Below, piece after piece: positions 290 through 13,631 of a stretch of 20,000 bases of DNA; positions within the stretch are counted from its first letter, which is position 1, and the number at the start of each line of letters is the position of its first letter. The notes beneath the pieces are model-generated. The model did not search any database, was not told the origin of the DNA, and saw only the letters and a program-made list of their open reading frames with translations. This stretch comes from an uncultured virus (IMG/VR IMGVR_UViG_3300032053_000035) (lineage: Duplodnaviria; Heunggongvirae; Uroviricota; Caudoviricetes). The stretch lies in the IMG/VR virus record IMGVR_UViG_3300032053_000035. One strand, 5' to 3'. Both the position numbers and the translations under genes were made by a program.

Positions 290-1342
290 ATGCTCCTAAG
301 AGATTCCTATGTGCCAGAAACCAATGATACGTCAGACCGCATTTTGCCTTGGATACCAAAAGCAGTACCTGCCGTGGAACCAAAAGGACTAAGGAAGCCT
401 CGCATAGTTTACGCTCCATTCGAATACCAAAAAGCCTACGACTACTGGCACAAGCAGCAGTGCGCACACTGGCTCCACACGGAGATAAACCTGGCGCAGG
501 ACCTGCAAGACTGGAGCGTGATGTCCAGCCTGGATAAGCACGTGGTAGGATCGGTGCTCAAGGGTTTCGTCCAAGCTGAGGTAGTGATCGGTGATTATTG
601 GAGTACTAAGGTGTCATCTTGGTTCCCTAAACCTGAGATAGCCCTGATGTGTGGCGCCTTTGCCGCTATGGAGGGTGTCCACCAAACTAGTTATGCCTAT
701 TTAGGCGATACCCTGGGCCTTGACGATTACAAGGCTTTCTTAGAGGAACCAACCGCTCGGAGCAAAATAGATCGACTCGTATCAGCTCCGCGTGACGCCA
801 ATAATCACGATGTCGCAGTGTCGCTAGCGTCATTTTCGGCGTTTGGCGAGGGTGTCAGCCTTTTCTCCTCTTTTGCGGTTCTTCTTCACTTTTCCACAAG
901 AAATATGCTAAAAGGTACCGGCCAAATCATCTCATTTTCTATAAGAGATGAGTCCTTGCATTCAGAGGCAGGATGCTGGTTGTTCAAGGAATTCATGGCG
1001 GAAGAGCCGTCCTTGTTTTCTAAGCGTCTTACTTCTGACATCAAGGAAGTGGCTCGCGAGACCGTGCGGCTCGAAGAAAACGCAATTGACCAAATATTTG
1101 ACGGCGGGGCGCTTGGATCTTTTACTCCGCAGCACCTAAAAGCCTTTATTAAGTTACGTGCTAACAAAAAGCTGCAGGAAATAGGTGTACAGTCAATCTT
1201 TGGCAAAATCGATGAACAGGCGGTGGCTAAGACCATGGGCTGGTTTGATGCTATTTCAGCAGGACGTGAGCACGCGGATTTCTTTGCTACGAGAGTGACC
1301 GAGTACGGCACTACCGATGGCAATTGGGAAGAAATTTGGTAA
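290..1342 (+). CDS. nrdB: Ribonucleotide reductase class I beta (radical-generating) subunit
   Basis: Ferritin-like ligand motifs QAEVV, EGVHQTSY (ExxHxxxY radical Tyr), FGEGVSLFSSF, RDESLH, C-terminal DFFATRVTEY. RBS GGAGG upstream. Confidence 0.97.
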   Translation: MLLRDSYVPETNDTSDRILPWIPKAVPAVEPKGLRKPRIVYAPFEYQKAYDYWHKQQCAHWLHTEINLAQDLQDWSVMSSLDKHVVGSVLKGFVQAEVVIGDYWSTKVSSWFPKPEIALMCGAFAAMEGVHQTSYAYLGDTLGLDDYKAFLEEPTARSKIDRLVSAPRDANNHDVAVSLASFSAFGEGVSLFSSFAVLLHFSTRNMLKGTGQIISFSIRDESLHSEAGCWLFKEFMAEEPSLFSKRLTSDIKEVARETVRLEENAIDQIFDGGALGSFTPQHLKAFIKLRANKKLQEIGVQSIFGKIDEQAVAKTMGWFDAISAGREHADFFATRVTEYGTTDGNWEEIW

Positions 1343-1362: not shown

Positions 1363-3102
1363 ATGTCTCAGACTTGGAAACGCGGTATCGACTATCCTGA
1401 ATTTCTAACGGAAGAGGGCTTAACTACCCTTAAGGGCGGATATTTACTTGATGGCGAAACGCCTATGCAGATGTATGCCCGTGTTGCTCATGCTGCGGCT
1501 AGTAATGTGCACCGGACTGATTTAGAAGCCCCCATGTTCGAAGCCCTAATTAAGAATTGGATCTGTTTGGCGTCACCAGTTGCGGCCAATGTAGGAACCA
1601 CGCGGGGGTTGCCAATATCTTGCTTTGGTTTGACAGTATCTGACAGCGTGGCTGGTATTTCAACGGCTTACAACGAACTGATGATGATGGCAAAAGGTGG
1701 GGGCGGCGTTGGCGTTTCTTGGAGTGGCGTCCGGGGAAGGGGCACCAAGATTGCCCAAAACGGCGTCTCCAATGGCACCATTCCCTGGATCAAGGTGCAA
1801 GACTCTCTGACAGCCGCCGTTAACCAGGGGTCGGTACGCAATGGTGCCTCCTCCGTCTACATGAGCATTAACCATCCTGACATCGAAGAGTTTATTAGGA
1901 TTCGTCGTCCTAAGGGTGACCCAAACACGCGCTGCCATAACCTCCATCATGCTGTTGTATACGATGACGCCTTTATGCAAAAGGTAGAGCTTGGTGATCC
2001 GGAAGCCAGGAAGCTCTGGATGGAAACTATCAAGATGAGGAAGGAGACCGGCGAGCCCTACCAGATGCACATCGACAACGTCAATCGCAAAAGGCCTAAA
2101 GCTTATGTAGACAACGGCTTGTTTGTTACTATGTCACAGCTGTGCTCAGAAATTGTTTTATACTGCGACGAGACGCATTCGTTTGTTTGCTGTTTGTCTT
2201 CTATGAACCTGGCTAGATACCATGAGTGGAAGGGAAAAGGCATCCCTTACCTAGCCACCTGGCTCCTAGACGGGGTTATGCAGGACTTCATCAACAAAGC
2301 CGAAGGCCTACCTGGCATGGAGAAAGCCAGGCGTTTCGCAGTAAAATCTCGGGCTCTTGGCCTGGGCGGATTAGGCTGGCATTCGCTGTTGCAAGCAGAG
2401 ATGACACCGTTCAACTCGTTGCGAGCCAAAATACTAAACAAGGCCATCTGGAAAGAAATAAGAGAGGATGCCGACAGGGCGTCGCAGGACATGGCCAAAT
2501 ATTTGGGCGAAGTGGAATGGACTAAGGGCCTTGGTGAGCGACATACGCACAAATTGGCCATTGCTCCGACTACCTCCAATGCCACTATGTCATCAGATAG
2601 TAATGGACACACCGTGTCCTTCTCCATCGAACCGTGGCCAGGCAACATATTCACGCAGAAGTCAGCAAAGGGCACGTTTGTTCGTTACAACCCGATGTTT
2701 ACCAAGATGTTGGAAGAGCACAAAAAGTTTACACCGGACGTCATCCAGTCAGTTGTGGAGGCCCGTGGCTCCGTCCAGCATTTGTCCTTTCTTACTGACG
2801 AACAACGAGAAGTATTCAAAACGGCCTATGAGATTGACCAGTTTGCTATCATTGAGCAGGCAGCAGACAGACAAGAGTTCTTGGACCAAGGCCAGTCGCT
2901 CAACCTTTTCTTTAAGGCTGACGTTGACCTAAGGTACTTCAACGCTGTCCACTTAGACGCATACAAAAAGGGTCTGTTTACACTGTACTATGTGCGATCT
3001 GAGTCACCAATACAAGGTGATACTGGCGTATCTACTAAATCTGATGACACCGACCTATTTACCCCTATAGAACCAGCCGAGTGCACTTCCTGCGAAGGAT
3101 AA
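1363..3102 (+). CDS. nrdA: Ribonucleotide reductase class I alpha subunit, short form without ATP cone
   Basis: ASPV, PISCF (redox Cys), GGGVG, SQLCSEI (thiyl Cys and Glu), CCLSS, IAPT, DQGQSLN, TLYY, C-terminal CTSCEG. Directly follows nrdB. Confidence 0.97.
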   Translation: MSQTWKRGIDYPEFLTEEGLTTLKGGYLLDGETPMQMYARVAHAAASNVHRTDLEAPMFEALIKNWICLASPVAANVGTTRGLPISCFGLTVSDSVAGISTAYNELMMMAKGGGGVGVSWSGVRGRGTKIAQNGVSNGTIPWIKVQDSLTAAVNQGSVRNGASSVYMSINHPDIEEFIRIRRPKGDPNTRCHNLHHAVVYDDAFMQKVELGDPEARKLWMETIKMRKETGEPYQMHIDNVNRKRPKAYVDNGLFVTMSQLCSEIVLYCDETHSFVCCLSSMNLARYHEWKGKGIPYLATWLLDGVMQDFINKAEGLPGMEKARRFAVKSRALGLGGLGWHSLLQAEMTPFNSLRAKILNKAIWKEIREDADRASQDMAKYLGEVEWTKGLGERHTHKLAIAPTTSNATMSSDSNGHTVSFSIEPWPGNIFTQKSAKGTFVRYNPMFTKMLEEHKKFTPDVIQSVVEARGSVQHLSFLTDEQREVFKTAYEIDQFAIIEQAADRQEFLDQGQSLNLFFKADVDLRYFNAVHLDAYKKGLFTLYYVRSESPIQGDTGVSTKSDDTDLFTPIEPAECTSCEG

Positions 3103-3224: not shown

Positions 3225-3929
3225 ATGGATGGAAACTTAGCCAAAACCAAAAAGAAAAAGCGCAAGACTGCAGCTGAGAAACGAGCCATAGCAGCGGCCA
3301 AGGCGGCTGTTAGCCAAGCGGAAGCAAAAGCTGTCTCACTCGCCCTAGCGGAAAACGATAACGGCCAAGCCATTGCCGTAGAAGTACACAAAACACCGGT
3401 TGCCAAGAAGAAGCGGAAAACTGCTGCTGAGAGACGAGAGGCAGCTAAGATAAGGGCTACTGCAGAGGCTGAGGCGGCAAGTAAGCCAGTTAGCCAAGGT
3501 CCAAAAATATCTCAGTGGCTCAGCCTGTTCGCTAAGGACAGGTTGACTGACGCCGAGCTTGCCACGATAGAAAACGATTATGTTATTCCTAGCGAAGTCA
3601 TGTACGACCCAAGGGTGGAGTTGGAAAGGACCGCTAGGCGCAAGTTGGCCACGTTAGCTTTTCAGCAGCGCTCCGTGCAGCAGTCCTTGGCTTCCATTGG
3701 TGGGAGTGATATTCCGGTATTGGACGAGTTCTTCCCGAGCCCGGAGGCCATTTTAGTAGCCGCCGACAGGCTAAGCCGTGATGCAGCAGTCCTTAGGCAA
3801 GTCAAGGGCAAGGCAGACAAGACGCACGTGCAGCTGGACCGTATGTCTGCTTTTCTTATGGCTTGGCATAAGTTTGTGACAGCAGAGGTAAGGAAAACAA
3901 AAGTGGCTATTGGCTACTCACAAGATTAG
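3225..3929 (+). CDS. Hypothetical protein with duplicated Lys/Ala-rich basic N-terminal motif
   Basis: RBS AGGAG, 234-aa ORF. KKKRKTAAE[KR]R occurs twice. Confidence 0.8.
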   Translation: MDGNLAKTKKKKRKTAAEKRAIAAAKAAVSQAEAKAVSLALAENDNGQAIAVEVHKTPVAKKKRKTAAERREAAKIRATAEAEAASKPVSQGPKISQWLSLFAKDRLTDAELATIENDYVIPSEVMYDPRVELERTARRKLATLAFQQRSVQQSLASIGGSDIPVLDEFFPSPEAILVAADRLSRDAAVLRQVKGKADKTHVQLDRMSAFLMAWHKFVTAEVRKTKVAIGYSQD

Positions 3930-4142: not shown

Positions 4143-4721
4143 ATGATTGATCCGCTAGCTATTTGGAAATCAGAGTTTGCTAAGCTACCTCTTGACCCTA
4201 CCGGCGCTGCCGGAGCGCTTAATTTAGCTAAATACATAAACGCCAGAGTGTCTAACAAGCTTGGCATGTCGCCAAAGGTGGCCGCTGTTGACGCTCCGGC
4301 CAAGGCTGTTTTTACTTGGCAACCGTCAGTTTTTGTGGCCTCACTTCTTGGCCTCACTTTTTCGCCAGTGGCTGCTGTCGGCGCTCTCAAAATGTCCTCG
4401 GCCTGGGCGTCAGCTACTCAGGCATCTACGTTTATTGTGGCGCCCGGTGCCGTCATTTCTCCGCCCCCGCCCCCGTCCACCGGCGCATCGTCAGTAATTA
4501 CGTTGTCAATCGTAGAGCCGCCTAGCATAGTCAAGTCCCAGCAAGCTCTGTTCAAAGGGCTGTTGTCGGCTGGCCAGGCTGCTACCGCACTGGAGTCAGA
4601 AATGCCTAAACTTCTCTATGAAGCTTTTCTAGGACTAACCTTTGCCGTTTCCGGCCTAGATACTACCCCTACTCCGGCTGGGCCACTACCTATCACACTG
4701 ATAGGCGTGCCAGCCGAGTAA
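4143..4721 (+). CDS. Hypothetical Ala/Pro-rich protein, possibly virion-associated
   Basis: 192-aa ORF coupled to the upstream gene. Function inferred from context only. Confidence 0.7.
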   Translation: MIDPLAIWKSEFAKLPLDPTGAAGALNLAKYINARVSNKLGMSPKVAAVDAPAKAVFTWQPSVFVASLLGLTFSPVAAVGALKMSSAWASATQASTFIVAPGAVISPPPPPSTGASSVITLSIVEPPSIVKSQQALFKGLLSAGQAATALESEMPKLLYEAFLGLTFAVSGLDTTPTPAGPLPITLIGVPAE

Positions 4722-4723
4722 GG

Positions 4724-7700
4724 TTATGTGCTGCGACCGCTAAGATACGCCACTGGCGTACCGGCATTGACGCCAGTCATTACCAATTGATTAAGTTCAC
4801 TGATCCACAGCAAGTCATACCATGTTGTTATTGTTGTTATTGTGGCAAAGGTAGCAATACCAAAAGTCACCCCATCAGCAGTAATCGGTCTTGTAAGGAA
4901 ATTTAATGTACCGTTAGGCGGTGTTATGACAAATATACCAAGTGGATCAGCCCAAACAATCTTGCCTAATATTTGTGTAGTGCTGCCAGTGTTCCAAGTG
5001 GCGCCATCAACGCTATGCATAATCATTGCTGATCCGGCTGTTTGAACAGTAGCAGTACCAACAAACCTAGTTAGCCGCGACGACCAAGCTATGTTTGTCC
5101 AAAATCCGGCAGTGCCACCAACGGATCTAAGCGTCCAGCTAATCCCATCAGTTGACGTAATAATTCTTTGTGCCCCAATACCAGCCGGGCCGGAAGCTAA
5201 CGCAGCAAAAATACCAAGCTCAGGAGCCCATGCGATGCAAGTTAGATCCATGTCTGCACCAGCGGGCTGCGGGGTGCCCCTGATTGTCCATGTTATCCCA
5301 TTAGGAGAAGTCATTACTCTGTTTGCTACGCCAGATTTTGCTACTGCAACAAATAAATTCTTTTCTTTCGACCAGCACACACTTGTCCACTGATTGTCGG
5401 CTGCTGAGGTGCCAACTGACCAAGACACCCCATCGCTAGAGGTGGCTACTCTGTTACCAGCCCCGCTTTGTCCCACTGCTACGAAAATACTACGCTCGCT
5501 AGACCAACATATAGCTGACCAGGTGTTGTTAACGCTAATGGTGCTAGTGTTCCAGTTCATGCCGCCATCTAATGAGTAGCTGGCAGTGCTGCTTAGGTTG
5601 CTTACTGCGGCAATAACACCTATCTCTGGTGACCAGGCCATGAACACAATATGAGATCCTGTTACTCCTGGCGTAGTAATGGCTGGTAAACTTACCTGCC
5701 TCCTAGTAATACTACTCGCCCAGTCTACAGGATTTAGCGGGGTGGCTATCACAGCAGTAACTGTTACTCTGTCGCCTTTCCTTAACACTGCTATCACACC
5801 ATTTTGTGTGCTTGGAGTTTGTGTTCCGGACCTAACAATTACTTTTGTCGCCTCGTCTTGGAAACCAAAGGTCTGTCCTCTGTTTTCTATTGTGTATTCC
5901 TTACCGGGGATAATACTGTCGCCTCTTATAGTAGCTGTGACAACTGTGCTGTGGCCAGAAATTACTTGATAACTATCGCTGCTATTAGTAATAGAAAAGC
6001 TGTTAGTATTGACGCTTAATCCGCCAGCGCCAGCGATGCCGGTGGAGCCTTGGACGCCAGTCTGACCAGCGATGCCAGTGGTTCCCTGGACGCCAGTCTG
6101 ACCAGCGATGCCAGTGGTTCCCTGGACGCCAGTCTGGCCGCCTACACCTGTGGAGCCTTGGACGCCAGTTTGACCAGCGATGCCAGTGGTTCCCTGGACG
6201 CCTGTTGAGCCAACCAGTCCAGTCTGGCCGCTAGTTCCGGTAAGGCCTTGGACGCCCAAACCAGTAACCCCCTGAACCCCAACACCGGTCACGCCTTGCA
6301 CGCCTGTCTGGCCAACAACACCGCCAGAGCCTGTAACTCCTTGGATGCCAGCGCTACCGCCAACACCGGTTTCGCCAGAGCCTGTAACTCCTTGGACTCC
6401 GGTCTGTCCCCTTACCCCAGTCTCGCCTTGGACACCTGTGGTTCCCTGGACACCTGTGGTTCCCTGGACCCCAGTGTTTCCCTGGACCCCAGTGTTTCCC
6501 TGGACACCTGTGGTTCCCTGGACCCCAGTGTTTCCCTGGACCCCAATGTTTCCCTGGACCCCAATGTTTCCCTGGAAGCCTGTGGTTCCCTGGACCCCAG
6601 TGGTTCCCTGGACGCCTGTGGTTCCCTGGACCCCAGCGTTTCCTTGGACGCCTGTGGTTCCCTGGACCCCAGCGTTTCCTTGGACGCCTGTGGTTCCCTG
6701 GACCCCAGCGTTTCCTTGGACGCCTGTGGTTCCCTGGACGCCTGTGGTTCCCTGGACACCGGTCTGTCCACTTACCCCAACCCCAGTAGTGCCAGCTGTT
6801 CCAGTAAACCCTTGGACCCCAGTTTGCCCAATGACTCCGGTCACGCCTTGCACGCCAGTTAACCCGGTGGTTCCCTCTACCCCGGTCTGTCCATTTACCC
6901 CGGTAGCTCCTTGTATACCTTGCACACCAGTCTGCCCTACACCAGTAGCTCCTTGCACGCCAGTATGTCCCTGCGGGCCAGCAGAAATGATCGGCGTATG
7001 AATGTGGGAAGTTCTAGTGCCGCCGTCAAGATAGGTTGATACGTTAACCGTTGTAGGGCTGTCGGTAACAGCGTATATCTTAATGACCAACCTATCAGTA
7101 ACATCCAAGTCAAATTGTGGAGCACCGTAAGAAAATACAACAATGTTAGATGTTATACCTTGTAATTCTTGGCTGGATAGCATGAACAACAAGGTTTCGA
7201 GTCCGCCAGCTGATCTTTTGTATACCCTGGTTGATAGTTGGGTTATGCCAGAAGTGCTATCTTGTTGTACCCACAAATTGTAGTCATAGATGCCGTTAAT
7301 AATAGTTTCCGTGTTGGGGTCACCAAACGGAGAGGCGAAAGCTTTTATTAGTACCTCACCAGTGCCTGAGTCAACTGCTGCGGACACCGTAGCCTCTGCC
7401 GCACCGGTTACGTCTCTGGTCATAGCAAAATATCCGCTGATATCAGATACGGTTTGGTGTAGTATATACACAACGCCAGACAATGGTCCATCTAGGCCTG
7501 TTGCGCCTTGCGTCCCCTGGGCGCCAGTATTTCCTAATCCGCCTGTGGTTCCTTGCATGCCAGTACCGCCCTGCACGCCAGTAAACCCAACCCCAGTAGT
7601 TCCATTAACGCCAGTGTTCCCTTGAACACCAGTACTTCCCTTGACTCCGGTCTGGCCGTCAACTCCGGTAGCACCAACCAGCCCAGTGTTGCCTTGGACG

Positions 7701-9214
7701 CCAGTAGCCCCACTGATTCCGGTTTGGCCGCCAACACCAGTCTCGCCTTGGACTCCGGTAACACCAACCAGGCCGGTACTTCCTTGTACTCCGGTAGCTC
7801 CTTTGACTCCGGTCTGGCCGTCAACTCCGGTACTTCCTTGTACTCCGGTAGCTCCTTTGACTCCAGTCTGCCCGTCAACTCCGGTAGCTCCTTGTACTCC
7901 GGTAGCTCCTTTGACTCCAGTCTGCCCGTCAACTCCGGTAGCTCCTTGGATGCCGGTACTTCCTTGTACTCCGGTAGCTCCTTTGACTCCAGTCTGCCCG
8001 TCAACTCCGGTACTTCCTTGTACTCCGGTAGCTCCTTTGACTCCAGTCTGCCCGTCAACTCCGGTAGCTCCTTGGATGCCGGTACTTCCTTGAACACCAG
8101 TACTTCCCTTGACTCCAGTCTGCCCGTCAACTCCGGTAGCTCCTTGGATGCCGGTACTTCCTTGAACACCAGTACTTCCCTTGACTCCAGTCTGCCCGTC
8201 AACACCAGTAACACCACTAATGCCAGTGTTGCCTTGTATTCCCGTAGCTCCTTGTACTCCCGTAGCTCCTTGGACCCCTGTTTGTCCTGCTACCCCAGTC
8301 TGCCCGTCAACTCCGGTAGCCCCGTCAACACCAGTCTCACCCTGAATCCCAGTCTCGCCTTGAACGCCTGTGGTTCCTTGGACGCCAGTCTCGCCTTGTA
8401 CTCCAGTAGCTCCTTGGACGCCCGTCTCACCTTGGACACCAGTGGTTCCCTGAACACCAGTAGCTCCTTGGACGCCTGTTTCACCCTGAACACCAGTCTC
8501 ACCTTGAACGCCTGTCTCACCTTGAACGCCTGTCTCACCTTGGACCCCAGTCTCGCCCTGGACCCCAGTGGCTCCCTGGATGCCTGTCTCACCTTGGACC
8601 CCAGTCTCGCCTATCAGGCCAGTTGCCCCTTGGACGCCGGTCTCGCCAGCAACACCAGTATTTCCTTGTACTCCGGTATTTCCCTGCGGACCAATAACGC
8701 CAGTCTGACCTGCCACGCCAGTCTGCCCATCTACTCCTGTCTCCCCTTGGACCCCGGTGTCGCCCTGCACCCCAGTAAAACCAACACCTTGTACGCCTGT
8801 GTGGCCTCTTACCCCAGTTGGTCCACTAAATCCAGTTTCTCCTTGGATACCAGCACCAGTGTAACCTTGTTGTCCTTGTATGCCAGTAGGGCCAGCCACG
8901 CCTGTTACGCCGTGGCTCCCACCAATGCCGCTAAGACCAGTGTAACCCTGCTGGCCTTGGATGCCAGTTGTGCCCTTAACGCCGGTGCCGCCCACAAACC
9001 CGACAGCACCACCTAAGCCAGTAGAACCTTGCTGCCCTTGTATTCCTGTTCGCCCTTGAATTCCTGTTGGTCCTCGTGGACCAGTAGAGCCACCGCCAGT
9101 TACCCCAGCAACACCGGTCTCTCCTGCAACCCCGGTTGCGCCATTGATGCCAGTTCGGCCTTGTACGCCAGTAGCGCCCTTGATTCCGGTGTGTCCCTGG
9201 ATGCCTGTAGTCAT
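4724..9214 (-). CDS. Collagen-like fibre protein: two (Gly-X-Y)n tracts, an internal beta-rich domain, and a C-terminal Asp-box/BNR beta-propeller
   Basis: Likely start ATG 9214 (RBS CGGAG) rather than 9256. GxT-GVQ triplets at ~9205-7490 and ~6980-6020. SxDGxxW-type repeats [36 protein letters not shown] at ~5600-4860. Confidence 0.9.
6430..6760 (-). repeat. Tandem 18-bp repeats encoding G[TN][TAI]GVQ
   Basis: Near-identical units such as CCTGTGGTTCCCTGGACG / CCAGTGTTTCCCTGGACC read directly on the + strand. Confidence 0.9.
7770..8200 (-). repeat. Higher-order 54-72-bp near-perfect tandem repeats in the collagen tract
   Basis: Includes an exact 72-bp duplication at 8039-8110 / 8111-8182. 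Confidence 0.9.
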
Positions 9215-9334
9215 ATGTTGCGCTCCGTGATGCAGAGAAAATGCTGGTGTTAACATTTAATCTAAGTAGACTACTTCCAGAAATGCTGGTATTGTAAAAC
9301 TAAAAATAAGAACATTTGTTGATTAGAGGTCCAT

Positions 9335-10450
9335 ATGCAGCAAGGAAAGTTTAACACGGTTGTTGACGCGGCTTGGGGGTCGTCCGGAAAAGGAGCTGTT
9401 GCCACAAGATTAGTGGACATTTTCGGCATAAAAAACGTGTCGTCCGGTAATTACCCGAACGCTGGTCATTCTGCCATTATTGGCGCAACAAAGTTCGTGT
9501 CTAAGGCGCTGCCAACCCCGCTGATTCTTAACAAGCTGGGCAGAGAAGGTATGACTGGTTGGATTGGCCCAGCGTCGTCTTTTCAAATGGCTCAGTTCGA
9601 GAAGGAGGTTGAGGAGTGCGGTTTCCCAGATGTGGTAATTCACGAAAGAGCTATTATCACCGAGCAGAGGCATGTTGATGCCGAGTCCCCTGGTGGATCA
9701 CTATCAACCGAGCATGTCTCCAGTACTATGTCCGGCTCCGGTTCCTCAGCGGCAGATAAGCTAATGCGTGGCAAAAATGTTAAACTGGCTCGTGATGTCT
9801 TGTGCACCGTTAGCCCAGTGGACTTCTTCTACGATGTTAGAAATGAACTCAATGGCGGCAACACCTTTTTGCATGAGGTTAGCCAGGGTTTTGCACTGTC
9901 CATCAACTATGGTACTCAATACCCAAACTGCACCTTCCGAGATTGCTCCCCACAACAAGCATATGCTGATTTCGGCATACTGCCGTCTATGGTTGGTGAC
10001 GTATACCTTAACATTAGAAGTCTGCCAATCAGGGTTGGTAATAACTACCGCGATGGCCAGCAAACCGGCTACAGCGGTGATTTCATGGTGGACCAAAAAG
10101 AGCTTACATGGGACCAAGTAGCAGCAATGGCAGGTATGCCACCAGAAGAAGCCAAGATGTTGGCAGAGAACGAACGAACTACTGTAACAAAGAAAATTAG
10201 GCGCGTAGCCACCCAAAGTTGGATACTAACGAAGCAAGCTGCTGATTTTTGCGGCGCTACCAAAATAGTTCTCAACTTTCCGCAATACATTCATTGGTCT
10301 GCCCACAAAGTCAGAGGCGGCAAAGAAGCACTTAGCCTGCTGCACGAAGACGTTAGGAGTTATATAGACAAGCTGGAAGACACGGTAAACCTGCCAGTGA
10401 CAATGCTTTGCACCGGTGCTGAGCACGATGATTACATTTGGTTGGAATAG
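9335..10450 (+). CDS. purZ: PurZ-type N6-succino-2-amino-deoxyadenylate synthase (adenylosuccinate synthetase homologue)
   Basis: P-loop DAAWGSSGKG has Ser at the PurA catalytic Asp position (PurA: GDEGKG). Also PNAGH, QGFALS...YPNCTFRD, PIRVG, ELTW and TTVTKKIRRV. LNFPQY replaces the GTP-selecting TKxD of PurA. Confidence 0.85.
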   Translation: MQQGKFNTVVDAAWGSSGKGAVATRLVDIFGIKNVSSGNYPNAGHSAIIGATKFVSKALPTPLILNKLGREGMTGWIGPASSFQMAQFEKEVEECGFPDVVIHERAIITEQRHVDAESPGGSLSTEHVSSTMSGSGSSAADKLMRGKNVKLARDVLCTVSPVDFFYDVRNELNGGNTFLHEVSQGFALSINYGTQYPNCTFRDCSPQQAYADFGILPSMVGDVYLNIRSLPIRVGNNYRDGQQTGYSGDFMVDQKELTWDQVAAMAGMPPEEAKMLAENERTTVTKKIRRVATQSWILTKQAADFCGATKIVLNFPQYIHWSAHKVRGGKEALSLLHEDVRSYIDKLEDTVNLPVTMLCTGAEHDDYIWLE

Positions 10451-11002
10451 TTACTCTGCTTTGTACTCGTCGAAGCTTTGGCGATTAGTTATTTCTATTA
10501 CACTTGGGTCATACACTATCACGTGTGTGACTCCATCCCTATTGGCCTCGTGCCCGCTGTACCCAAGTCTTACTAAGCCTTTCAGATAGTCTGCGCCATC
10601 CTGCATATAAAAATCTGCCCACGTCTGCAAATAAGGCTGGTTATCGGCCATCATGGCACCAATGGACATTTTGAGTGCCTTACTAGCGTTTTCGTCCCAG
10701 TTGGCTAGCTTATACTCCAGGTCTGGCGCATTTTTTACTAGCGTTTCGATGTCGCTTTGCTTAGCTTTCTTTGGTAGTAATTTCTTGATATTAAGCTTGG
10801 CTTCTATTATGATGCCACTTGGATAAGCGTACGAGGCTGCATCCTCACGGCTTGACGAAAAGTAGAAGCCTGGACCTTCTTGGTCCTTGCCTTTACCAGT
10901 CCACGCGTAATCAAATTTGGTAGTGCTAACTGTTCTTCCATGATACCATGTTTCTGACTTATCAGCCACAACAAATCTAAGAGCTGATATCAGTCTGTCC
11001 AT
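10451..11002 (-). CDS. ADP-ribosyltransferase-fold protein (H-Y clade, ART-PolyVal-like)
   Basis: Likely start ATG 11002 (RBS GGGAGAGG). Motifs WYHG, KFD, GPGFYFS, AASYA and late GYSG...VIVYDPSVI, as in polyvalent-protein ART domains. Confidence 0.7.
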   Translation of the reverse strand: MDRLISALRFVVADKSETWYHGRTVSTTKFDYAWTGKGKDQEGPGFYFSSSREDAASYAYPSGIIIEAKLNIKKLLPKKAKQSDIETLVKNAPDLEYKLANWDENASKALKMSIGAMMADNQPYLQTWADFYMQDGADYLKGLVRLGYSGHEANRDGVTHVIVYDPSVIEITNRQSFDEYKAE

Positions 11003-11162
11003 GTGCTGCCTCTCCCTTATTACATAAACAACCCAATATAACATCTCAGAACCGGCGGGTAGGTTACGCAAGGCCAGTCCTCCTTATGTTATAACTTGAA
11101 TTTATCCACCCGCGTTTCGCTGGGGTAGTTCGTAGCTTTCCCATCACACGGAGATACGCCGC

Positions 11163-13631
11163 ATGGGATCTTTCGCGCAAGGTGCACTTGTTGAGCAAGT
11201 AGCCTCCGTGGCAACGGCTGGTGTTACCACTACTCTTACTAGTGCCTCACTAACATACCAAAAGTTTACTGGGGTTTTAAACCAAATAGTGGTGCTGCCA
11301 AATGCCACCACTATGAAGGTCGGCAGACGCTTTCAGATTGATAGCCGCACCACTGGCACATTAACCATTAACTACAATTCTGGCGCGTTTGCCACGGACA
11401 TCCTGGCCTACGTTGGCAAGACTTTGGTATTAGTTGACAACTCTACTACCAACGGCACCTGGACTATCTCAGTTAGCGTGGATAACAAAGAACCGCTTAA
11501 GATATCGCAGGCTCCTGGAGTAGCTGATACTAGACTGTTTATTTCGGCCAACCAAGTAAGAGCAGAGGATGGGACGACCAAAACAATTTCGCCGTTGGGT
11601 TCGCTGCTGCCAAGCTTTGTTGAGACTACTGTCGATCTCCAAACTGCGGCAATCGTTGGCGGCAGTGTTACTCTCAATGGCGGTGCATTTTCCTTACCAT
11701 CAACTACTGTCGGCCAGTTCCGACGAATGGCTTTGGTATATAATGGTTCGACCAACGCTGTTGATACGACTTTTTCTGCGGCTTCTGTCACTCAGGGTGC
11801 CCTGACTGGTGCCGGTACCCTATTTGCATTGATTTCTGGTACCCCGCTTGGCTACGTAGACCTGGTAGCCACTGGTGCCACAGCCTTTAAGACTGCCTCG
11901 TCCGGCAGCAACGTAATCGAAAATTTCTCAATCTTCCAGGTTACTAGCAGTGGCATACCGCCATTGGCTACTACTACGCTATCAGGACTAGTTAGCACTG
12001 TAGCCCAAACCTTTGCCGGTCCCAAGACGTTCAACGATGCGACTACCTTCAAGGCGTCTAGCGGAACCATTGCTGCTGGGGGTTACGACGGGGCTGGTCA
12101 ATGGGTTCTTGGCGACGCACTAACAGCATTGCCAGTAACAATCAAAGGCTCCGGGTCGTCCAACCTTCTTACGCTGCAGGCGTTCAGCAGTAACAATGGT
12201 GTAGTAGAGCTAATAGCTAATGTTGGCGCTGCTAACAGTTCCATTATAAAGCTGACGTCAGGAGCCTCTGGTAGCGGTATCATTAGGCTTGGCCATGCCT
12301 CGGCTGAATTTAAGATACAAAACAGTTCATCGGTTGACTTAGCCAGTATGGCTGCTGGTGGCGCCTGGACTTTCCCAATTAGCGTGCAGACACCAATCGT
12401 AATACTGACCGCTGGTGGCGCTTCTGGTACCACTAAGTTGACTCTTTCCGGTACCACCTGGCAAATAGGTGGAACAGTTTCCACCATTACCGAGGCCGGT
12501 ACCTTCTCTGGCGTAATAGGGTCGTTCTCATCCAGTGTTGGTACTCCTGTCCTGCAACTGACTTCTGGCGGCACTCCTGGTGCCGCTAAGTTGACTCTTT
12601 CTGGTACCACTTGGCAAATCGGTGGCGTCATTTCCACCATCACTGAGGCCGGTGCTTTCGTTGGCGTGACTGGCTCATTCCCAACCAATGTAGGCACGTC
12701 AGTACTGCAACTAACCGCTGGTGGTTCTTCCGGTACTACTAAGCTAACTCTTTCTGGTACCACCTGGCAAATCGGCGGCACCACTTCCACTATCACTGAG
12801 GCTGGCACATTTTCAGGTGTTATAGGCAGCTTTCCCACTAGCGTTAACACGGCGATAATACAAAATACTGCCGCTGCTGCACTAGATATCAAGGCCGCCT
12901 CTGGCCAAGCCATTAGGTTTGCAGCAGGTGGCGCGGCGGCTGGTGCTCACGGAGATATTTCGGCACTTGGTAGCCTAACTATTTCGTCGACGACTGACCA
13001 CCTGTTTAACGGCAACTTAACCTTTCCATCCGGAAAGGGTATCGAGTCATCTGCTGCGTCAGCTATTCTTAACATTGGCACCACAGCCAACCCAATTACG
13101 ATGAATTTGGGCACAGGTAGCAATATTACTACTGTCAATGTTGGCACTGGTGCTGCCGCCTCTACTATTAATATTGGAACCGGGGCAGCTACCACCATTA
13201 ACATTGGTACCGGGGCAGCCGCCACCGCTATCAATGTTGGCGGAGTTAACGACATAGTTAACACCGGCGCTGCGTCCTCTTCCCAGATGCACCCGATTAA
13301 CGGATATGCAAGAATTGTCTCCCCAACTCAGTCAGCAATTGCTGGCGGCGGCTACGGCTTCGATTTTTCACTACAACACATATATTACAAAACTGGCGGC
13401 GCCGGTACCTTTACGTTAAATAACTTAGCCGAAGGTCAAACAGTTACCTTAATGGTGGCTTCCACCGGTGCCAGTTACACAATTACTTGGGCTCTACCAA
13501 GCGGCTCGATAAAGTGGCCAGCAGCATTGGTACCAAACCCAACCAGCGTTGCTTCCAGGTATGATGTGTACAACTTCATCAGAATTGGTGGAGCTGTGTT
13601 TGGTACTGCTGGTCTCAATTTTGGTGGGTAG
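11163..13631 (+). CDS. Large fibre/virion structural protein with internal repeats
   Basis: RBS GGAG. Gly/Ser/Thr-rich 822 aa, with a QTFAGPKTF fibre motif, three 51-aa repeats, INIGTGAA repeats, and a C-terminal domain ending IKWP...P...T...DVYNF typical of phage fibre proteins. Confidence 0.85.
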   Translation: MGSFAQGALVEQVASVATAGVTTTLTSASLTYQKFTGVLNQIVVLPNATTMKVGRRFQIDSRTTGTLTINYNSGAFATDILAYVGKTLVLVDNSTTNGTWTISVSVDNKEPLKISQAPGVADTRLFISANQVRAEDGTTKTISPLGSLLPSFVETTVDLQTAAIVGGSVTLNGGAFSLPSTTVGQFRRMALVYNGSTNAVDTTFSAASVTQGALTGAGTLFALISGTPLGYVDLVATGATAFKTASSGSNVIENFSIFQVTSSGIPPLATTTLSGLVSTVAQTFAGPKTFNDATTFKASSGTIAAGGYDGAGQWVLGDALTALPVTIKGSGSSNLLTLQAFSSNNGVVELIANVGAANSSIIKLTSGASGSGIIRLGHASAEFKIQNSSSVDLASMAAGGAWTFPISVQTPIVILTAGGASGTTKLTLSGTTWQIGGTVSTITEAGTFSGVIGSFSSSVGTPVLQLTSGGTPGAAKLTLSGTTWQIGGVISTITEAGAFVGVTGSFPTNVGTSVLQLTAGGSSGTTKLTLSGTTWQIGGTTSTITEAGTFSGVIGSFPTSVNTAIIQNTAAAALDIKAASGQAIRFAAGGAAAGAHGDISALGSLTISSTTDHLFNGNLTFPSGKGIESSAASAILNIGTTANPITMNLGTGSNITTVNVGTGAAASTINIGTGAATTINIGTGAAATAINVGGVNDIVNTGAASSSQMHPINGYARIVSPTQSAIAGGGYGFDFSLQHIYYKTGGAGTFTLNNLAEGQTVTLMVASTGASYTITWALPSGSIKWPAALVPNPTSVASRYDVYNFIRIGGAVFGTAGLNFGG
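12405..12860 (+). repeat. Three tandem 153-bp (51-aa) repeats
   Basis: Units start at 12405, 12558 and 12711. Consensus LTxGGxxGxxKLTLSGTTWQIGGxxSTITEAGxFxGVxGSF. Confidence 0.9.

Follow-up and report, generated by a model that had tools for sequence, protein, structure and literature searches.

The window analysed here, a stretch of 20,000 nucleotides from an uncultured virus of the Caudoviricetes (IMG/VR record IMGVR_UViG_3300032053_000035), contains at positions 9335 to 10450 an intact gene for a 371-residue protein (the query), which is best read from its sequence as a member of a separate, divergent large-phage branch of ATP-type PurZ, the succino-amino-deoxyadenylate synthase of the already known pathway leading to 2-aminoadenine (Z) in DNA. 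With a probability of about 0.6, the query is an active ATP-type PurZ operating in a phage deoxynucleotide-supply module, its product feeding dZTP for DNA. The visible part of the phage amounts to ~21 kb, including the window, of a contig of possibly 79 kb; the phage is probably large, and the branch of the PurZ family to which the query belongs is large and found mostly in big phages. The gene and the codons of its motifs are located as follows:

9335..10450, plus strand: purZ-type gene (P0001), 371 aa, intact; identified by Pfam, PHROG, PDB, AlphaFold2 (AF2) and trees
9374..9394, plus strand: codons of W14-G-S16-S-G-K-G20, with Ser16 where PurA has its catalytic Asp
10178..10204, plus strand: codons of T282-T-V-T-K-K-I-R-R290, where PurA has Gly at the first position
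10274..10288, plus strand: codons of N314-F-P-Q-Y318, an adenine (ATP/dATP) pocket where PurA has its guanine-reading (T/N)(K/H)xD

The open reading frame (ORF) 9335-10450 on the plus strand is free of stops over 371 codons, and the WGSSGKG, NFxQY and TTVTKKIRR motifs claimed in an earlier note on this DNA were all located in its translation. The N-terminal motif reads D11-A-A-W14-G-S16-S-G-K-G20 in full, and is accompanied by H180-E-V-S-Q-G-F (180-186), N198-C-T-F201-R-D-C (198-204) and L313-N-F-P-Q-Y318. Membership of the family is far beyond chance: a Pfam search with the query protein matched PF00709 (E 1e-15), PHROG 1211, '2-aminooxy adenylosuccinate synthetase', was matched at E 8e-40, and a sequence search of the PDB ranked phiVC8 PurZ (E 1e-28) before Pyrococcus horikoshii PurA (7e-26), S-2L PurZ (9e-20) and PurZ0 7VF6 (3e-11). 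An AF2 model of the query, built with 32 relatives in the input, reached a predicted local distance difference test score (pLDDT) of 95 and a predicted template modelling score (pTM) of 0.93, and Foldseek matched it to 2D7U, 6FKO, 7ODX and 7VF6, all with E values between 5e-26 and 2e-21. Since the model fits archaeal PurA, PurZ and PurZ0 equally, the fold confirms the family and not the subfamily.

The subfamily was addressed with an alignment of 237 sequences, made up of family members from large protein collections, related loci, phage references and bacterial PurA (11 phage proteins from annotated records and 8 bacterial PurA serving as references). In the FastTree phylogeny of all 237 rows, rooted on bacterial PurA, PurZ0 was basal, and the query fell into a 92-row clade (support 1.0) that is sister (0.97) to a 65-row clade with every characterised PurZ. 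A careful IQ-TREE analysis of 77 of the 237 rows, chosen to cover each clade with the other 160 left out, gave the following ultrafast bootstrap (UFBoot) and SH-like approximate likelihood ratio test (SH-aLRT) values, respectively: 100/100 for the query with its relative L049, 97/92 after addition of L056, 100/95 for the query's own clade of 16 rows, 100/99 for its superclade of 42 rows, and 95/78 for the sister relationship of this superclade to the known-PurZ clade, which contains the S-2L, phiVC8-like, PMBT28, Acinetobacter, ZP6, Bm1 and BUCT555 PurZ. All ATP-type rows were united with 100/95, as were all Ser-type rows including PurZ0 (100/95), and the branching order was the same in FastTree, in a quick run and in the careful IQ-TREE analysis. 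The phylogeny with PurA, PurZ and PurZ0 that had been proposed as a check consequently places the query inside the Ser-type PurZ/PurZ0 radiation, the PurA rows being bacterial only, and the suggestion of a lineage apart from the characterised small Z-phages agrees with its position in a separate, supported sister clade.

In PurZ, the catalytic Asp of PurA is replaced by Ser (Asp13 in Escherichia coli, S14 in phiVC8). The Ser at position 16 of the query recurs in 89/92 superclade rows, 65/65 rows of the known-PurZ clade and 3/3 PurZ0, with Asp in 8/8 bacterial PurA, and Thr282 is shared with 92/92, 65/65 and 3/3 rows, respectively, where 8/8 bacterial PurA have Gly. Other positions set the query apart from PurZ0 as well: Arg202 is the PurZ-type residue (Ser in both PurZ0 and bacterial PurA), Phe315 corresponds to Met in PurZ0 and to Lys/His in bacterial PurA, Gln317 falls under the PurZ-type Gln/Asn (Asp in PurZ0 and bacterial PurA), and Tyr318 is PurZ-type Tyr (Gln/Thr in PurZ0, Val/Thr in bacterial PurA). 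The PurZ state is also found at P231-I232 and at W259, the equivalent of phiVC8 W252, which is the top-ranked discriminating residue in the metaGPA preprint (bioRxiv 10.1101/2025.10.22.683976). W14 is aromatic, like the W (37/65) or F (25/65) of the known-PurZ clade, and the PIRVG strand is followed by a longer insertion, as described for PurZ. The functional weight of these sites is indicated by accounts according to which S14D in phiVC8 PurZ abolishes selectivity and F295 and Y298 of PurZ hold the adenine of ATP (bioRxiv 10.1101/2025.10.22.683976), and N305/F306/Q308 of S-2L PurZ contact adenine, while the insertion past the RVG strand of that enzyme pushes against C2' (PMC8342488). The S-2L motif, given in the earlier note as NFxQY, indeed reads LNFAQY in the alignment.

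Judged by its residues, the query carries the PurZ state at every position that discriminates PurZ from PurA. S16 and Q317 stand in place of both Asp residues diagnostic of PurA, and the GSEAKG, x-M-x-D-Q and Ser at 202 of PurZ0 are not present in the query, so that its assignment to PurZ rather than to PurA or PurZ0 is upheld by residues and tree together. The chance that it might instead cluster with archaeal PurA was addressed through residues and PDB alignments, in which its diagnostic sites differ from those of P. horikoshii PurA. The atypical residues that had been pointed out (AAW, EVSQG, CTFRD) are present, but they are shared by the clade rather than peculiar to this gene: Ala13 occurs in 13/19 near-clade rows (Gln in 61/65 of the known-PurZ clade), Phe201 in 15/19 (Ser in 59/65), and Val182 in 19/19, yet also in 14/65 of the known-PurZ clade.

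Comparison with known systems is in line with this placement. PurZ of phiVC8 (DgsS) and of S-2L (6FM1/6FKO/6TNH, 7ODX; NF038379) have in common with the query the short PurA fold, the Ser for the catalytic Asp, TTVT(K)xRR, the insertion after the RVG strand and the adenine pocket N-F-x-(Q/N)-Y, the exact NFxQY form being that of S-2L. Although phiVC8 PurZ is the best PDB sequence match, identity to phiVC8 and S-2L PurZ is 29-34%, and the query differs from them in having GSS where they have GST, Ala13 and Phe201 where they have Gln and Ser, and ~50 C-terminal residues that can still be aligned with archaeal PurA; its gene lies beside nrdAB and not beside mazZ/datZ/dpoZ. PurZ0 is of the Ser type like the query, and in both PurZ0 phages and the query's relatives Dut-like and NDT-family genes accompany purZ. 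However, PurZ0 has GSE, x-M-x-D-Q (with a guanine-reading Asp) and Ser at 202 where the query has GSS, NFPQY and Arg202, it is basal in the tree, and, unlike in PurZ0 phages, no Dut-like or NDT gene lies in the query's window. The P. horikoshii PurA PH0438 (2D7U/5K7X; NF003295) shares the short fold, an equal Foldseek score and the alignable C-terminal region, but reads WGDEGKG, GTVTGRRRR and TMLDKYD where the query has PurZ residues.

The PurZ reading is supported by genomic context in the query's own 16-row clade, two members of which lie in recognisable Z clusters. In L019 (genome G019, 117,656 bp with terminal repeats, CheckV 100%), the genes that come after purZ are, in this order, MazZ-like, DatZ-like and NrdR-like; the only PDB match of the MazZ-like protein is S-2L MazZ 7ODY (E 2e-9), and that of the DatZ-like protein is S-2L DatZ 6ZPA (E 3e-4; YfbR-like E 1.8e-9). 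L001 (G001, 41 kb, terminal repeats) has the order PrimPol/VapE, purZ and DUF5664 dATP/dGTP diphosphohydrolase (E 2e-23). Elsewhere in this clade, an NDT-family gene occurs 1-3 kb upstream of purZ in L003, L013 and L005, L006 has a dUTPase-like gene just downstream, along with a gene for a family B polymerase 2 kb from purZ, and dUTPase-like and NUDIX genes are near purZ in L056. The large replication and nucleotide module around purZ in the complete 160.7-kb genome G004, another member of this clade, comprises DnaB, an ADK-like kinase, NDT, Dut-like, ThyX, DnaE, an RNase_T-like exonuclease, adenosine deaminase, dCTP deaminase, RecA, purZ, NrdB and NrdA. Together with the family B polymerase of L006 and the family A polymerases counted below, the DnaE and RNase_T-like exonuclease of G004 bear out, in the relatives, the expectation of different replicases in this lineage. 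Among 45 viral records, the helper families exceeded their cut-offs as follows:

HD_3: 9/45 viral records
MazG: 2/45 viral records
DUF5664: 4/45 viral records
NDT: 3/45 viral records (7 at E <= 0.01)
Family A polymerase: 17/45 viral records
PurB: 9/45 viral records

DUF550 (PF04447) was found in 0/45 of these records, but the controls, including a phiVC8-like phage, gave no signal either; PF03819 (MazG) was likewise silent in the phiVC8-like control, so that the absence of MazZ is a weakly tested one, and PF05014 barely detects known DmtZ, picking up the Gordonia protein at E 4e-4 and missing the Arthrobacter one. Dut-like proteins are encoded directly downstream of purZ in L029, L030, L034, L035, L078 and L079, ThyX 1.8-4 kb downstream of purZ in most jumbo loci, and an HD gene well over 10 kb from purZ in G013 and in jumbo phages. 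NDT (DmtZ) and Dut-like (DutZ) enzymes have recently been tied to Z synthesis in PurZ0 phages (PMC12884076); the NDT and Dut-like copies of the relatives appear to belong to these families, their likeness to DutZ/DmtZ being one of family only.

No DNA match to the window was found in 50,697 phage records, 162 of which contain isolate PurZ homologues, all with at most 34.5% identity. Large collections yielded 1892 homologues (E <= 1e-5); some 100 of these have 50-79% identity, on contigs of up to 428 kb. Among 45 related IMG/VR loci, 20 are on contigs of at least 100 kb and 11 on contigs of at least 200 kb, the largest reaching 436 kb, and six records (G009, G012, G016, G018, G032 and G039) exceed 300 kb and are marked complete, with terminal repeats. 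The phage of the window was encountered again in L048 (99.4-99.6% identity, adding ~1 kb), with a relative in L049 (97% amino acid identity), and is present in sediment metagenomes (24 rows, all of them assembled contigs and none listed as RNA). Its NrdA is 49% identical to that of Flavobacterium phage immuto, and the closest proteins (47-49%) are those of 160-172-kb myoviruses; an 822-residue window protein was matched only in a C-terminal piece, by two Leptospira phages.

The window contains 16 plausible genes, of which those surrounding purZ are listed below:

290..1342, plus strand: nrdB, ribonucleotide reductase small subunit (PF00268, E 1e-60)
1363..3102, plus strand: nrdA, ribonucleotide reductase large subunit (PF02867, E 6e-95)
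3225-3929 and 4143-4721, plus strand: two unassigned ORFs, no Pfam/PHROG/NCBIfam match
4724..9256, minus strand: collagen-repeat tail-fibre gene, 1510 aa, between nrdA and purZ (PF01391, E 1.5e-113; tail-fibre PHROGs)
10451-11071, minus strand: ART-PolyVal gene (PF18760, E 8e-10; PHROG 25279)
Downstream of the ART-PolyVal gene: fibre-like and unassigned genes

The earlier note had described purZ as standing alone between fibre genes in a genome with nrdAB and a probable clamp loader. The nrdAB genes are present and the upstream neighbour is a fibre gene, but the downstream flank is the ART-PolyVal gene, and searches of Pfam, PHROGs and NCBIfam with the 16 window ORFs returned neither a clamp loader nor an AAA+ protein. 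Nor does purZ stand alone, as nrdAB is near purZ in L002, L004, L054 and L075. Upstream of purZ, NrdA and/or NrdB genes are found at a distance of 1.2-3.8 kb in these four loci and in L038 and L045 (NrdA at 2.3-3.5 kb in all six), an nrdB homologue closely precedes purZ in L002 and L004, and several jumbo loci have Nrd genes ~9 kb upstream. As nrdAB adjoins purZ in relatives, and no fibre gene separates nrdA from purZ in L002, L004, L054 and L075, the window is read as a conserved nrdAB-purZ module split by the collagen-repeat fibre gene, which does not itself belong to the pathway. A jackhmmer search with 12 queries returned no homologues of window proteins other than PurZ in the loci of the relatives.

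In the proposed mechanism, the query would transfer phosphate from ATP (or dATP) to the O6 of dGMP and add aspartate, yielding dSMP. This would be converted via dZMP to dZTP by adenylosuccinate lyase, supplied by the host or encoded by the phage as in some relatives, together with kinases, and dZTP would then be placed opposite T by the phage polymerase. The purZ gene and ribonucleotide reductase would constitute the deoxynucleotide-supply module, divided here by the fibre gene. Z in the DNA of this phage is plausible on these grounds, to an extent of A-to-Z replacement that may range from partial to complete.

Several observations weigh against this interpretation, and most of them bear on alternatives. 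The query scores 154.4 bits with the NCBIfam PurZ model NF038379, whose curated cut-off is 300 and with which relatives reach 168-198 bits, and nearly as much, 147 bits, with the archaeal-type PurA model NF003295 (cut-off 368), the score with the PurA model TIGR00184 being 80 bits against a cut-off of 396. In comparisons with the query, P. horikoshii PurA scores almost as high as PurZ (94.6 vs 103.8 bits; with a profile, 176 vs 197 bits), the PurA of the tree is only bacterial, archaeal PurA having been compared through PDB alignments and residues, and Phe201, flanked by the invariant T200 and R202, replaces a Ser conserved in PurA, in PurZ0 and in 59/65 rows of the known-PurZ clade. Moreover, the neighbours, ribonucleotide reductase here and ThyX, dUTPase, dCTP deaminase and kinases in relatives, are ordinary dNTP-supply genes, and some PF00709 proteins in the metaGPA data came from unmodified contigs (3/17 clustered away from E. 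coli PurA; bioRxiv 10.1101/2025.10.22.683976). The low PurZ score, the similarity to P. horikoshii PurA, the ordinary neighbours and these unmodified contigs would suit an auxiliary PurA-like enzyme forming (deoxy)adenylosuccinate from IMP/dIMP and ATP and boosting the (d)AMP supply with no Z being made. Such an enzyme is nevertheless improbable, given the Ser in place of the catalytic Asp, at a site where S14D abolishes the selectivity of PurZ, the position of the query inside the PurZ/PurZ0 radiation, and the clade members that adjoin MazZ/DatZ or DUF5664; the subfamily is decided by the diagnostic residues, on sequence grounds, and not by the NCBIfam scores. A different kind of caution comes from about 40 loci in metagenome-assembled genomes (MAGs) of gut Clostridia/Bacilli, which encode on the chromosome a more distant Ser/NFAQY homologue (31-35% identity to the query; AGSCGKG, PIRIS, NFAQY) in a housekeeping context, where it is either fused to a NUDIX hydrolase or adjacent to one (Ham1 in L108); cellular PurZ-like loci of this kind are L103:9521-11095, L088:9524-11062, L102:10001-11585 and L108:10160-12249. 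Canonical PurA is missing from 8/16 tested genomes with the cellular homologue, and PurB was found in none of five. As a Ser + NFxQY enzyme thus exists in PurB-less gut bacteria, the signature alone is no proof of Z synthesis, and another ligase reaction, as perhaps catalysed by these NUDIX-linked proteins, might be considered for the query too. This is very improbable: the gut proteins branch outside the 53-row clade joining the query's superclade with known PurZ, they differ at several sites (AGSC, PIRIS), and the missing PurB is explicable by MAG incompleteness.

The alternative closest to the preferred reading accepts PurZ chemistry but not a fully Z-substituted genome, Z being partial or conditional, or the enzyme reshaping host pools through a drain on dGMP and ATP/dATP. 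MazZ, DatZ, DUF5664, NDT, Dut-like and polymerase genes were not found in the 20-kb window (~21 kb visible), so that no dATP-removing enzyme is seen there and the Z status of the phage rests on the PurZ gene and its relatives; the classical helpers are, in addition, patchy across the large relatives and missing from most of them (HD_3 9/45, MazG 2/45). Published observations point the same way, in that PurZ of S-2L is able to draw on dATP as energy donor (PMC8342488) and a Z cluster placed in E. coli without the matching polymerase led to only partial substitution (bioRxiv 10.1101/2025.10.22.683976). Against this stand the limited share of the genome that is visible, with helpers possibly located elsewhere, as is the distant HD gene in G013 and jumbo phages, and the full clusters in relatives of the same 16-row clade. 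We therefore regard this alternative as unlikely, albeit the least unlikely of those considered, and prefer the active ATP-type PurZ that supplies dZTP for phage DNA.

To our knowledge, the Z-genome phages studied at the bench are all small (~38-83 kb). In these phages purZ lies beside dedicated dATP/dGTP hydrolases, often with a Z-selective family A polymerase. A wider proposal, which is tentative and which we hold to be somewhat less probable than its negation, is that the PurZ branch described here marks Z-DNA in phages of 118-436 kb with DnaE-, B- or A-family polymerases, the phage of the window included, in which adenine is excluded without DatZ/MazZ; exclusion would be achieved by NDT-type dAMP cleavage, by Dut-like dATP/dGTPases, perhaps by adenosine deaminase, or by nothing at all. 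If this is true, Z-DNA would be far more widespread, and less bound to one replisome, than the small siphoviruses and podoviruses investigated to date suggest. An active branch would widen the range of Z-DNA to include large and jumbo phages that use other replicases, show the range over which the helper set varies, and offer new enzymes for Z-DNA synthesis. The gene itself is a defined object for tests by PacBio kinetics or restriction enrichment with existing sediment DNA. More than 2000 Z-viruses have already been predicted in homology surveys (PMC13128860). In the literature collection searched, nothing was found on PurZ in jumbo/huge phages or on 2-aminoadenine together with a phage ribonucleotide reductase, though Tong et al. 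2023 may already list the branch.

Further observations concern the relatives. The adenosine deaminase of G004 (L161:1204-2484; PF00962, E 3e-63) could serve in the removal of adenine nucleotides or act on diaminopurine itself. The Dut-like protein encoded next to purZ has an N-terminal extension of ~100 residues without Pfam match (L078:11119-11886, L079:11110-11871), and the Dut-like/purZ loci include chromosomes of Chondromyces apiculatus and Sorangium, possibly as prophages. PurZ homologues are interrupted by inteins that carry LAGLIDADG homing endonucleases; P0121 has one such intein and P0128 has two, and ORFs of 801-821 aa suggest more of them (L055:8590 on, L026:8587 on and L039:8551 on); neighbouring ribonucleotide reductase genes are also interrupted by inteins (L050:5734-8586, L055:4214-7381).

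In the window itself, a promoter scan around purZ stayed at chance level, with 3 found vs 3.0 expected. The ART-PolyVal gene (ADP-ribosyltransferase of the 'polyvalent protein' type) lies on the opposite strand to purZ and ends one base past its stop codon. The ORFs at 3225-3929 and 4143-4721 look non-enzymatic in their Lys/Ala-rich or Ala/Pro/Ser-rich composition, and their Atlas neighbours were uninformative, the second having only 5 homologues; the first starts with two copies of the Lys-rich KKKRKTAAE(K/R)R and may encode a nucleic-acid-binding or internal virion protein. The GC content of the collagen-repeat fibre gene rises to 0.61 (6389-6757 and 7772-8776), vs ~0.48-0.50 in most of the window. 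Its repeat differs by 126 bases between the window and the 99.5%-identical L048, which implies that repeat number varies within the population. Finally, L049:8424-9854 is a second copy, 76% identical, of part of the gene for the 822-residue protein of the fibre region (window 11219-12649), which points to a duplication or to an exchange of cassettes within the fibre module.

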